DNA of 64,000 bases from Escherichia coli (GTDB lineage: Bacteria; Pseudomonadota; Gammaproteobacteria; Enterobacterales; Enterobacteriaceae), in the NCBI RefSeq assembly GCF_003991155.1, contig NZ_CP031293.1, one strand, 5' to 3'. The position numbers and the translations under genes were made by a program. The notes beneath the pieces are model-generated. The model had not been told where the DNA came from. It did not search any database and was given only the letters and a program-made list of their open reading frames with translations. Below, piece by piece: positions 1 to 48,663 of this stretch; positions within the stretch are counted from its first letter, which is position 1; the number at the start of each line of letters is the position of its first letter.

Positions 1-1065
1 CCCGCGTTGATTAGTGGTGGTTTGATCCTCGGTTTTCGCAATGTGATCGGCGATTTGCCCATGAGCAACGGTCAGACGCTGGCGCAAATGTACCCTTCCC
101 TGCAAACGATCTACGATTTTCTATGGTTGATCGGTGAAGCGATCTTCTTCTACCTGCCGGTCGGGATTTGCTGGTCAGCGGTGAAAAAAATGGGCGGCAC
201 GCCGATCCTTGGTATCGTGCTTGGCGTGACACTGGTTTCTCCACAGCTGATGAACGCTTATCTGCTCGGGCAGCAGCTGCCGGAAGTGTGGGACTTTGGC
301 ATGTTCAGCATCGCTAAAGTGGGCTATCAGGCGCAGGTGATCCCGGCACTGTTAGCCGGGTTGGCGCTGGGCGTTATTGAAACTCGCCTTAAACGCATCG
401 TACCGGATTACCTCTATCTGGTGGTGGTGCCCGTCTGTTCGCTGATCCTCGCGGTGTTCCTCGCCCATGCGCTGATTGGTCCGTTTGGTCGCATGATTGG
501 CGATGGCGTTGCCTTTGCGGTACGTCACCTGATGACCGGCAGCTTTGCTCCGATTGGCGCGGCATTGTTTGGCTTCCTGTACGCCCCGCTGGTGATCACC
601 GGGGTACACCAGACCACGCTTGCTATTGATTTGCAGATGATTCAAAGCATGGGTGGTACGCCAGTGTGGCCGCTGATTGCGCTGTCGAATATCGCTCAGG
701 GCTCCGCCGTGATAGGCATTATCATTTCCAGCCGCAAGCACAATGAACGCGAGATCTCCGTGCCTGCGGCGATCTCCGCCTGGCTTGGGGTCACTGAGCC
801 TGCAATGTACGGCATCAACCTGAAATATCGCTTCCCGATGCTGTGCGCGATGATTGGTTCTGGTCTGGCAGGATTGCTATGCGGCCTGAACGGCGTTATG
901 GCGAATGGCATCGGCGTAGGCGGCCTGCCGGGAATTCTCTCGATTCAACCGAGCTACTGGCAGGTGTTTGCGCTGGCAATGGCTATCGCCATCATCATCC
1001 CGATTGTACTCACCTCGTTTATCTATCAGCGGAAATACCGCCTGGGCACGCTGGACATTGTTTAA
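1..1065 (+). CDS. treB: PTS trehalose-specific EIIBC component, C-terminal 352 codons (5' end outside window)
   Basis: ORF 7..1065 translation is a polytopic membrane protein; sits immediately upstream of treC as in K-12 treBC operon; frame open to window edge. Confidence 0.9.
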   Translation, partial: PALISGGLILGFRNVIGDLPMSNGQTLAQMYPSLQTIYDFLWLIGEAIFFYLPVGICWSAVKKMGGTPILGIVLGVTLVSPQLMNAYLLGQQLPEVWDFGMFSIAKVGYQAQVIPALLAGLALGVIETRLKRIVPDYLYLVVVPVCSLILAVFLAHALIGPFGRMIGDGVAFAVRHLMTGSFAPIGAALFGFLYAPLVITGVHQTTLAIDLQMIQSMGGTPVWPLIALSNIAQGSAVIGIIISSRKHNEREISVPAAISAWLGVTEPAMYGINLKYRFPMLCAMIGSGLAGLLCGLNGVMANGIGVGGLPGILSIQPSYWQVFALAMAIAIIIPIVLTSFIYQRKYRLGTLDIV

Positions 1066-1073
1066 TTTTCTTC

Positions 1074-1091
1074 GGGGCGCAATTGCGCCCC
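1074..1091. other. Perfect 18-bp palindrome GGGGCGCAATTGCGCCCC in treB-treC intergenic spacer (potential stem-loop)
   Basis: Read directly from sequence between treB stop (1065) and treC ATG (1115). Confidence 0.5.
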
Positions 1092-1114
1092 CTCGCATTT
1101 GCAGGAATAACGTA

Positions 1115-2770
1115 ATGACTCATCTTCCCCACTGGTGGCAAAACGGCGTTATCTACCAGATTTATCCAAAGAGTTTTCAGGACACCACGGGTAGCGGCAC
1201 CGGCGATTTACGTGGCGTTATCCAGCGCCTGGACTATCTGCATAAACTGGGCGTTGATGCCATCTGGCTAACCCCCTTTTATGTCTCTCCCCAGGTCGAT
1301 AACGGTTACGACGTAGCAAATTATACGGCGATTGATCCCACCTATGGCACGCTGGACGATTTTGACGAACTGGTGACACAGGCAAAATCGCGCGGGATTC
1401 GTATCATTCTCGATATGGTGTTTAACCATACCTCTACCCAACATGCCTGGTTTCGCGAGGCGCTGAACAAAGAAAGCCCTTACCGCCAGTTTTATATCTG
1501 GCGCGATGGCGAACCAGAAACGCCACCGAACAACTGGCGTTCAAAATTTGGCGGTAGTGCGTGGCGCTGGCATGCGGAAAGCGAACAGTACTATTTGCAT
1601 CTCTTTGCACCAGAACAGGCGGATCTCAACTGGGAGAATCCAGCGGTACGCGCAGAGCTGAAAAAAGTCTGTGAGTTCTGGGCCAATCGTGGGGTCGACG
1701 GGTTGCGCCTGGATGTGGTGAATCTGATCTCCAAAGACCCGCGTTTCCCTGATGACCTGGATGGCGACGGGCGTCGCTTCTACACCGACGGGCCACGAGC
1801 ACACGAGTTTTTGCACGAGATGAACCGCGATGTGTTTACGCCACGCGGGTTAATGACCGTAGGTGAAATGTCCTCCACCAGCCTTGAGCATTGCCAGCGA
1901 TACGCGGCTCTGACAGGCAGTGAATTGTCGATGACCTTTAATTTTCATCACCTGAAGGTCGATTATCCCGGTGGTGAAAAATGGACGCTGGCTAAACCTG
2001 ACTTTGTGGCTTTGAAAACATTGTTCCGCCACTGGCAACAAGGAATGCACAACGTGGCATGGAATGCCTTGTTCTGGTGTAACCACGATCAGCCGCGCAT
2101 TGTTTCTCGCTTTGGTGATGAAGGTGAATACCGCGTGCCTGCGGCAAAAATGCTGGCGATGGTGCTGCATGGCATGCAGGGAACGCCGTATATCTACCAG
2201 GGCGAAGAGATTGGCATGACCAACCCGCATTTCACGCGCATTACTGACTATCGCGACGTGGAGAGCCTCAATATGTTTGCCGAGCTGCGCAACGATGGGC
2301 GTGATGCCGACGAATTATTGGCAATCCTCGCCAGTAAATCCCGTGACAACAGTCGCACCCCCATGCAATGGAGCAACGGCGATAATGCCGGGTTTACGGC
2401 TGGCGAACCGTGGATTGGCCTGGGCGATAACTATCAGGAAATCAACGTAGAAGCAGCGCTGGCCGATGAGTCCTCGGTGTTTTACACCTACCAAAAGTTA
2501 ATCGCACTGCGTAAGCAAGAAGCCGTCCTGACATGGGGCGATTACCAGGATCTGCTGCCAAACAGCCCTGTATTGTGGTGCTATCGCCGTGAGTGGAAGG
2601 GGCAAACCTTGCTGGTCATTGCCAACCTTAGCCGTGAGACCCAACCCTGGCAGCCAGGGAAAATGCGCGGCAACTGGCAGCTTGTGATGCATAACTACGA
2701 AGAAGCCTCACCACAACCCTGTGCCATGACTTTACGGCCTTTTGAGGCTGTCTGGTGGTTACAGAAGTAA
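1115..2770 (+). CDS. treC: Trehalose-6-phosphate hydrolase (551 aa)
   Basis: Translation from MTHLPHWWQNGVIYQIYPKSF matches remembered TreC N-terminus; GH13 alpha-amylase-family motifs; ATG at 1115 gives 551 aa. Confidence 0.95.
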   Translation: MTHLPHWWQNGVIYQIYPKSFQDTTGSGTGDLRGVIQRLDYLHKLGVDAIWLTPFYVSPQVDNGYDVANYTAIDPTYGTLDDFDELVTQAKSRGIRIILDMVFNHTSTQHAWFREALNKESPYRQFYIWRDGEPETPPNNWRSKFGGSAWRWHAESEQYYLHLFAPEQADLNWENPAVRAELKKVCEFWANRGVDGLRLDVVNLISKDPRFPDDLDGDGRRFYTDGPRAHEFLHEMNRDVFTPRGLMTVGEMSSTSLEHCQRYAALTGSELSMTFNFHHLKVDYPGGEKWTLAKPDFVALKTLFRHWQQGMHNVAWNALFWCNHDQPRIVSRFGDEGEYRVPAAKMLAMVLHGMQGTPYIYQGEEIGMTNPHFTRITDYRDVESLNMFAELRNDGRDADELLAILASKSRDNSRTPMQWSNGDNAGFTAGEPWIGLGDNYQEINVEAALADESSVFYTYQKLIALRKQEAVLTWGDYQDLLPNSPVLWCYRREWKGQTLLVIANLSRETQPWQPGKMRGNWQLVMHNYEEASPQPCAMTLRPFEAVWWLQK

Positions 2771-2781
2771 ATCTTCGCTAA

Positions 2782-2813
2782 GCCCCGGTAATGCCTGTCA
2801 TTCCGGGGTTTTG
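2782..2813 (+). terminator. Rho-independent terminator candidate after treC (CCCCGG...CCGGGG then TTTTG)
   Basis: GC stem with T-run directly after treC stop. Confidence 0.6.
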
Positions 2814-24942: not shown

Positions 24943-25121
24943 CCAGTTTTTCATTTTTCAGCTGTCTGAATTTTAACCCTCTGGCGGCTTTACAGTACCT
25001 TACGCTATACTAGCCACTGAAAATGCCGGTTCACTTTCTTCGAATCGGCTTTCAATGTGTATTTCACACAAATTAATCAACTTCCCCTTCCGAGGATCTG
25101 GCCTAAAAGGTCGGATAAGAT

Positions 25122-26465: not shown

Positions 26466-26482
26466 CCCCAGAAACATCAACG

Positions 26483-26510
26483 GCTCCCGAATCAGGAGCC
26501 GTCTTATTAC
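26483..26510 (+). terminator. Stem-loop GGCTCC-CGAATCA-GGAGCC followed by T-rich tail after ytfL
   Basis: Read directly after ytfL stop. Confidence 0.55.
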
Positions 26511-28344: not shown

Positions 28345-28533
28345 TTCTCCACCTCGTCTCTGTGAGCGGTGTTAACTTATTGTTTTACTTATACCCTATC
28401 GTTAATGAATGCGCCAACTGTGATAGTGTCATCATTTTCAAAGCGTAAAATTGTGGCATTCTTCACTGTTCTATAAGTAAGACGTTTATTCTCCCTTTTC
28501 TTTCGTATTCCCGATGATAAAAGGATGTCCCTG

Positions 28534-45762: not shown

Positions 45763-45814
45763 TGCGCATTCACTGGCGGCACCTGCCGCCATATTTATTA
45801 GAAAAGGAACATCT

Positions 45815-47941: not shown

Positions 47942-48355
<414 letters not shown>

Positions 48356-48663
48356 TTATTCAGCCTCCTGTCTGGGTCAGCCGAATCCCGGGGAGGCAAG
48401 GAACGTGTTAAAGGTCGGCTGAAAAATGACGCGTTATAGTACTGACATACCCCGCTAAACTCAAGGGCAGAGCCGAAATAAATCTCCCCTTTCGCAAATA
48501 ACCTCTAAACCGCTGATTTGGAGTTCATCACACTTCATCATGGTGTTTTTTTGAACAACTGCATCAGAAATGGTCACCATCAACTTCTTTATCATTGATT
48601 AAAATTAAATCAGAAGATCATCACAGAGGAGAGCACACAAAGTCAGCCGTCGAGGAGGTATCT

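Follow-up and report, generated by a model that had tools for sequence, protein, structure and literature searches.

The spacer between treB and treC of Escherichia coli encodes a stable RNA hairpin that is conserved across Enterobacteriaceae, and an abundant in vivo RNA 3' end has been mapped in K-12 only 5 nt past its stem. The 18-bp perfect palindrome GGGGCGCAATTGCGCCCC found in the DNA of this spacer is the image of that hairpin, a 7-bp G/C stem-loop in the polycistronic treBC mRNA. Since the in vivo signal at the element is an RNA 3' end, it points to a role in the formation or the stability of an mRNA 3' end. The explanation that we favour, with a probability of roughly 0.55, is that of a 3'-protective stem-loop by which the treB message acquires a stable 3' end, similar to the stem-loops between malE and malF. 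The element is of an ordinary, known kind that tunes operons, with no new mechanism involved. Individually it is undescribed: a literature search for treB or treBC together with stem-loop, ProQ or Hfq returned nothing about the spacer.

The palindrome and the hairpin it encodes

The window, a stretch of 64,000 nucleotides (64 kb) of an E. coli chromosome, starts inside treB and continues with treC and nrdD. The identities of treB and treC were confirmed by matching the region to complete E. coli genomes: 5,423 of 5,426 contained it, with both genes annotated there, and the flanking region was single-copy (median of 1 place per genome). The first-pass annotation had reported a perfect 18-bp palindrome between the two genes, 24 nt upstream of the treC start, and both statements hold. 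The palindrome itself lies at 1074-1091, the range 1066-1114 given for it being the whole 49-nt spacer, and its last base is found 24 nt before the A of the treC ATG. The coordinates of the features are collected in Table 1. Matches of treBC to supposed plasmids also appeared (NZ_CP134663.1, NZ_OL790696.1, NZ_CP141089.1 and NZ_AP026896.1, from E. coli and, as 'pKAM479_3', from Aeromonas caviae); they arise because chromosomes of 4.8-4.9 Mb, as these records evidently are, were filed as plasmids.

Table 1. Features at and around the treB-treC junction (window coordinates; the arrow marks the predicted cut).
Feature	Position	Strand	Basis and remarks
treB, 3' part (PTS trehalose EIIBC)	1-1065	+	ORF and translation; TAA stop codon at 1063-1065; annotated as treB in matching E. 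coli genomes
Pyrimidine-only tract UUUUCUUC	1066-1073	+	Sequence; separates the hairpin from the treB stop codon
Hairpin 5' arm, GGGGCGC	1074-1080	+	Majority fraction 0.98 over 73 distinct spacers
Loop, AAUU	1081-1084	+	Makes the E. coli DNA perfectly palindromic; variable across species
Hairpin 3' arm, GCGCCCC	1085-1091	+	Lost in 13 E. coli genomes through a natural deletion of 16 bp
CGCATTTGC	1094-1102	+	Repeats CGCAATTGC (1078-1086) nearly exactly in direct orientation; the two bracket the natural 16-bp deletion
GC↓AUU, match to the RNase E core RN↓WUU	1095-1099	+	Predicted cut coincides with the mapped 3' end
Equivalent of the K-12 RNA 3' end	1096	+	MG1655 Term-seq 4464728 (-); 5 nt past the stem; placed by alignment and printed flanking sequence
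treC Shine-Dalgarno, AGGAA	1103-1107	+	Sequence; CAGGAA 95% conserved
treC (trehalose-6-phosphate hydrolase)	1115-2770	+	ORF and annotation; ATG at 1115
Intrinsic terminator after treC (CCCCGG...CCGGGG, then UUUUG)	2783-2813	+	Canonical; internal comparison; K-12 end 4463010

The hairpin consists of seven base pairs, all of them G/C, closed by a 4-nt loop, with a predicted energy of -15 to -16 kcal/mol. In its local context, the stem accounts for 93% of the predicted ensemble, and the z-score against shuffled sequences is -3.35. It starts 8 nt past the treB stop codon, and 11 nt separate its end from the AGGA of the treC Shine-Dalgarno sequence. K-12 MG1655, the comparison proposed in the first-pass annotation, carries the identical palindrome in a spacer that differs by a single base (T1100 of the window is C in K-12).

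No other perfect palindrome of at least 18 bp is present in the 64-kb window. A first-order Markov simulation predicts 0.37 perfect palindromes of 18 bp per 64 kb, and the length alone is therefore not significant. When hairpins with 7 perfect pairs, at least 6 of them G/C, and a loop of 3-8 nt were counted, the window contained 8 distinct ones versus 2.8 expected, and the treB-treC hairpin was the most stable of the eight. Most of the others have a T-run 3' of the stem or an A-run 5' of it, which marks them as terminators; the treB-treC hairpin, with neither a T-run after it nor an A-run before it, is the only one that is clearly unlike a terminator. Two further perfect 7-bp G/C-rich hairpins of the window, at 26481-26501 and 45774-45791, are without a clean T-run, their tails being TCTTATTACTGC and TATTTATTAGAA. 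Given its conservation in 80 Enterobacteriaceae species and the RNA 3' end mapped in K-12, the treB-treC element is more than a product of chance.

Several identities of the element were considered and rejected. An Rfam search of the spacer element gave only chance-level matches below the threshold, which speaks against a known RNA family. Elsewhere in the window, gathering-level Rfam matches were obtained for the ES239 sRNA (28411-28533, minus strand), the RpsF leader (48335-48419, minus strand) and the STnc450 sRNA (25003-25060, plus strand). REP or another repeat family was discarded on the grounds of copy number: a repeat search of the 64-kb window allowing up to 2 mismatches found one copy of the element. 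A terminator acting on the minus strand was dismissed as well, the tail on that side, GAAGAAAAUUAAA, having no U-run.

Conservation of the stem and its natural losses

To follow the element across species, one genome per species with TreC was scanned, which yielded 80 Enterobacteriaceae loci; their spacers were extracted and the 73 distinct ones aligned. A search with the TreC protein gave clusters of E. albertii and Salmonella only. Nearly all of the Enterobacteriaceae spacers contain GGGGCGC-N4-GCGCCCC with an energy of about -15 kcal/mol, and Buttiauxella gaviniae is the single species among the 80 whose spacer is devoid of the hairpin. Column conservation over the 73 spacers was 0.98 for both 7-nt arms, higher than for CAGGAA of the Shine-Dalgarno sequence (0.95) and for the last treB codons (0.84), followed by the tail (0.72) and the loop (0.68). 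The commonest loop, AGTT, found in 26 of the distinct spacers, is asymmetric; CGTT occurs in 8, and AATT, the loop which makes the E. coli DNA palindromic, in 4.

Standard pairs occupy 98.4% of the stem cells of the alignment, and pairing is preserved in the few variants with compensatory or wobble changes. Two Citrobacter spacers show double changes from C-G to U-A. Different stems were observed in Buttiauxella (GGGGCCA/TGGCCCC and GGGGCCG/CGGCCCC) and in 'Enterobacter pulveris' (GGGCGCGG/CCGCGCCC), and changes on one side of the stem produce G.U three times and C.A once when read on the plus strand. Covariation is sparse, with double changes at one pair only. Since the arms are kept at about 98% while the loop varies and AATT is present in 4 of 73 spacers, it is the RNA stem rather than the DNA palindrome that is conserved. 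As judged from the aligned spacers, the plus-strand RNA stem is maintained largely as sequence, and the dyad symmetry of the DNA is not. The RNA stem-loop suggested in the first-pass annotation is thus well supported by both the predicted fold and the alignment.

The tract that separates the stem from the treB stop codon is conserved in composition rather than in sequence: over 78 loci (among L006-L084) it measures 5-15 nt and is 92% pyrimidine, the sequence itself being poorly conserved. Pairing with the Shine-Dalgarno sequence of treC does not account for this pyrimidine content.

In Buttiauxella gaviniae, the short hairpin is replaced by an imperfect palindrome of about 125 nt within a spacer of 164 nt (L085, 1837-2000), folding with -62 kcal/mol and a z-score of -3.95. 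The palindrome contains GTGACTGGGGTGAGCG and presumably resembles an ERIC element. More distant junctions were taken from the chromosomes misfiled as plasmids and from megaplasmids of the plasmid collection. Two of these junctions have unrelated hairpins at the same place: Aeromonas caviae an 8-bp GC hairpin 13 nt past the treB stop codon (L086, 2126-2145), and Clostridium butyricum a 13-bp AU hairpin followed by UUUU, 6 nt past the stop codon of treP (L087, 2061-2089). No hairpin was found in the 13-32-nt spacers of the Erwiniaceae megaplasmid copies, Bacillus thuringiensis and Cetobacterium, and the element is therefore dispensable.

The same follows from E. coli itself. A natural deletion of 16 bp (window 1083-1098) between the near-repeats CGCAATTGC and CGCATTTGC was identified in 13 of 5,422 E. 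coli records. It takes away the 3' arm of the hairpin together with the site of the mapped 3' end and leaves a spacer of 33 nt (NZ_CM194971.1; L003, 327-359). The strains had human, swan, pig and chicken hosts. In all 13 genomes treB and treC are still annotated as intact, and thus the element can be dispensed with, though its loss is rare (0.24%). These strains are natural mutants of the hairpin and may serve as a ready control. In one other E. coli strain (NZ_AP022298.1; L005, 720-3016), both treB and treC are annotated as pseudogenes joined by an internal deletion, which takes out the 3' half of treB, the spacer and the start of treC.

The RNA 3' end past the stem and its explanation

Mapping of 3' ends had been proposed as a check of the element, and published data for MG1655 do implicate it. 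Term-seq of cells grown in LB to an OD of 0.4 places a 3' end, classified as 'primary' for treB, at 4464728 on the minus strand, with a mean of 425,606 reads (Adams et al. 2021, PMC7815308, Supplementary file 1). The printed flank of this end, ...GGGGCGCAATTGCGCCCCCTCG[C]ATTCGCAGGA, locates it at position 1096 of the window. The operon-terminal end behind treC (4463010, also 'primary') has 64,109 reads in the same data (PMC7815308), a 6.6-fold difference in favour of the treB end; Term-seq counts are not stoichiometric, however, and an abundant end could be a short, inert remnant of decay. Five more treB ends, labelled 'internal', are listed for LB at OD 0.4 between 4465154 and 4466176 (-) with 24,000-49,000 reads (PMC7815308). 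They fall upstream of the window and within its positions 1-670, and indicate that the operon is strongly expressed and actively degraded under these conditions. The end at 4464728 is given for LB at OD 0.4 only and is absent from the sheets for LB at OD 2.0 and M63-glucose, and the table of Rho-dependent termination regions of the same study has no row for treB or treC (PMC7815308).

The mapped end coincides with a match to the core motif of RNase E, RN↓WUU (Chao et al. 2017, PMC5222698). It lies between C1096 and A1097 of G1095-C1096↓A1097-U1098-U1099, which is the sole RN↓WUU match in the tail, and the stretch 1095-1099 is unpaired in the predicted local fold. The motif occurs 4-6 nt past the stem in most spacers of Escherichia, Citrobacter, Enterobacter, Leclercia and Lelliottia and is absent from this place in Klebsiella, Raoultella, Kluyvera and Salmonella diarizonae. 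The supplementary data of Chao et al. that were consulted list neither treB nor treC, nor even nrdD, and so their silence is uninformative. Overexpression of RNase E has been found to lower treBC mRNA along with others. PNPase and RNase II act poorly on a stem that has a tail of 5 nt.

From these observations, the following course of events may be proposed. The treBC transcript would first be cut just past the hairpin. RNase E, acting at GC↓AUU (1096/1097), is the most likely agent; alternatively, the end might result from trimming back from a more distal one. The stem, left with a tail of only 5 nt, would then block 3'-to-5' exonucleases, the RNA ending with treB would accumulate, and the treC segment would meet a different fate. 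In this way the element would uncouple the mRNA levels of treB and treC inside one operon, following the logic of the malE-malF intercistronic stem-loops. We infer the nuclease steps, as well as the effect on the TreB:TreC ratio. A genome-wide study of differential decay analysed treC-treB among 390 operons (S2) and left it out of the 47 whose genes differed 2-fold or more in both decay and abundance (S3) (Dar and Sorek 2018, PMC5927463); a strong stabilisation of treB is consequently not documented.

The alternative that survives best is a leaky intrinsic terminator, or attenuator, operating in E. coli too: a fraction of transcription rounds would stop and give treB-only RNA, and read-through would supply treC. 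A GC-rich 7-bp stem with a 3' end 5 nt downstream, exceeding the operon-terminal end 6.6-fold, fits this description. Moreover, a genuine U-tract comes after the same stem in Klebsiella michiganensis (CCUUUUUUG), Trabulsiella (CUUUUUUAG) and Kosakonia (UUCUUUUUUG), and the C. butyricum hairpin has its UUUU directly after treP. U-tracts after the stem were seen in several genera (for example, L011, L061 and L068), where the T-tail scores of the d'Aubenton-Carafa type reach 3.8. The tail of E. coli, CUCGCAUUU (CUCGCAUUUG), is in contrast not a U-tract, defined as at least 5 U in the 8 nt immediately 3' of the stem. With 3 U in 9 nt (CCUCGCAUU), a G/C-rich RNA:DNA hybrid is expected, and the T-tail score is 0.66-0.71, compared with about 3 by hand calculation for TTTTGCC, the tail of the treC terminator. 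A consensus terminator scan made no call at the treB-treC hairpin. Dar and Sorek retained treBC after they had removed operons with the signature of an internal terminator (PMC5927463), and the treB-treC site was not found in the supplementary data consulted of TERMITe, a re-analysis of Term-seq for intrinsic terminators. Finally, if the ratio of reads were taken as the efficiency of termination (about 87%), treC would be starved. Termination as the explanation of the E. coli element is hence, in our opinion, unlikely. In the genera with U-rich tails (Klebsiella, Kosakonia, Trabulsiella), the hairpin is probably a leaky intrinsic terminator as well, and it is plausible that such a role in those genera is accompanied by a minor one in E. 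coli.

It is also conceivable, though improbable, that the palindrome acts at the level of DNA, as a binding site for a protein or as a cruciform, or that it is a conserved by-product, such as a stable RNA left over from decay that regulates nothing. In favour of this, covariation is slight in arms that are conserved as sequence, 13 genomes from several hosts carry the deletion allele, and treBC was not called differentially decaying by Dar and Sorek. However, the symmetry centre is not conserved, AATT being present in 4 of 73 spacers, and the deletion allele is rare (0.24%). That other organisms have unrelated stable RNA structures in its place at this junction argues for a role at the RNA level. 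The protein-binding palindrome envisaged in the first-pass annotation fares no better when compared with a known site: the operator of TreR, a regulator of the LacI type, at the treB promoter is CGGGAACGTTCCCG, with a central CG, and is unlike GGGGCGCAATTGCGCCCC, whose own centre changes from species to species and is most often the asymmetric AGTT. A TreR/LacI-type operator was accordingly rejected.

A translational brake on treB, comparable to that exerted by REP elements, was considered as well. REPs located less than 16 nt from a stop codon down-regulate translation (Liang et al. 2015, according to the summary in PMC12306157); a ribosome stalled by the palindrome before termination would lead to cleavage of the mRNA, to tmRNA tagging and to less TreB. 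The distance fits the rule as it is given in that summary: the stem begins 8 nt past the stop codon in E. coli, the 78 loci measured all fall between 5 and 15 nt, and the hairpins of Aeromonas and C. butyricum start at 13 and 6 nt, respectively. Such closeness may, nevertheless, be no more than a consequence of a compact spacer. The palindrome does not belong to the REPs, being single-copy in the window and unrelated in sequence, the stem is just 7 bp long, and the Term-seq table, in which a single entry starts with 44647, contains no 3' end at or just before the treB stop codon (PMC7815308), although such ends are unstable. Taken together, we find this brake very improbable.

The least credible of the four is a modulator of treC translation, in which the hairpin, or a helix between the pyrimidine tract and AGGAA, would gate the access of ribosomes to treC or couple it to the translation of treB. 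The minimum free energy fold does pair UUUCU (1067-1071) with AGGAA (1103-1107) around the hairpin, and pyrimidines make up 92% of the tract over 78 loci. For the ensemble, however, freeing the Shine-Dalgarno sequence in 76 spacers is predicted to cost 1.84 kcal/mol with native tracts and 1.88 kcal/mol with random ones (p = 0.48), and a ribosome on the treB stop codon hardly alters this (1.70 kcal/mol). The stem also stops 11 nt short of the Shine-Dalgarno sequence, at the 5' edge of the estimated 30S footprint on the treC start region. Both the occlusion of the treC ribosome-binding site and coupling through the tract were rejected on the basis of the opening cost, and the effect on treC translation that had been suggested for the stem-loop is not supported by these predictions.

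The 3'-protective stem-loop therefore remains our preferred reading, and its possible importance lies in the proteins encoded on either side of it. TreB makes trehalose-6-phosphate, the inducer of TreR, and TreC destroys it, and so the TreB:TreC ratio sets both the flux and the induction. If a conserved hairpin provides treB with a stable 3' end of its own, this ratio could be fixed by simple post-transcriptional means. A more elaborate version, which is speculative and which we would not expect to hold, treats the stop codon, the pyrimidine tract, the invariant GC hairpin and the RNase E site as one regulated junction, where a terminating ribosome or an RNA-binding protein on the tract would decide whether the hairpin forms and the message is cut or ended at this place, thereby tuning TreB:TreC. 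If true, such a junction would adjust the steady-state level of trehalose-6-phosphate, which is, besides being the TreR inducer, a potentially toxic sugar phosphate.

Relation to known intercistronic elements

The treB-treC element combines properties of several known systems. Compared with REP/BIME elements, it occurs once in 64 kb (with 2 mismatches allowed), is 18 nt rather than about 35 nt long, and its sequence is presumably unrelated to the REP consensus. It shares with them the position of a palindromic extragenic element close to a stop codon, 8 nt past it, and the proposed ability to block exonucleases, in so far as the summary of the REP work consulted here describes it. With intrinsic terminators and attenuators it has in common a G/C-rich stem, a 4-nt loop and a 3' end a few nucleotides past the stem, and orthologous hairpins of Klebsiella, Kosakonia and Trabulsiella possess U-tracts; it differs from them in E. 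coli by a tail that is not U-rich (T-tail score of 0.7 versus about 3 for the treC terminator) and was passed over by the terminator scan. The place where the RNA ends resembles RNase E sites (PMC5222698), the mapped end lying exactly at G-C↓A-U-U in a single-stranded stretch that adjoins a structure, and may be regarded as a candidate site on the basis of its motif. The spacers of Salmonella diarizonae, Klebsiella and Kluyvera do not have the motif at this position.

The closest relatives are the malE-malF stem-loops and the hairpins that Dar and Sorek (2018) recognised at the 3' ends of stabilised upstream segments of operons, which are stable and have neither U-tracts nor Rho dependence (PMC5927463). 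There are differences: malE-malF has a pair of REPs, whereas treB-treC has a single, short and unique hairpin; 17 of the 26 hairpins of the Dar-Sorek set lie inside the downstream ORF, and this one lies in the spacer; and treBC itself failed the 2-fold thresholds for decay and abundance in that study. The features in common are a stable intercistronic hairpin without a U-tract and with no Rho-dependent region called, an in vivo 3' end just past the stem, conservation in related enterobacteria, and an upstream gene that encodes a transport component. The treB-treC junction leaves the current understanding unchallenged and would add a well-conserved and easily testable case to the operons shaped by protective stem-loops.
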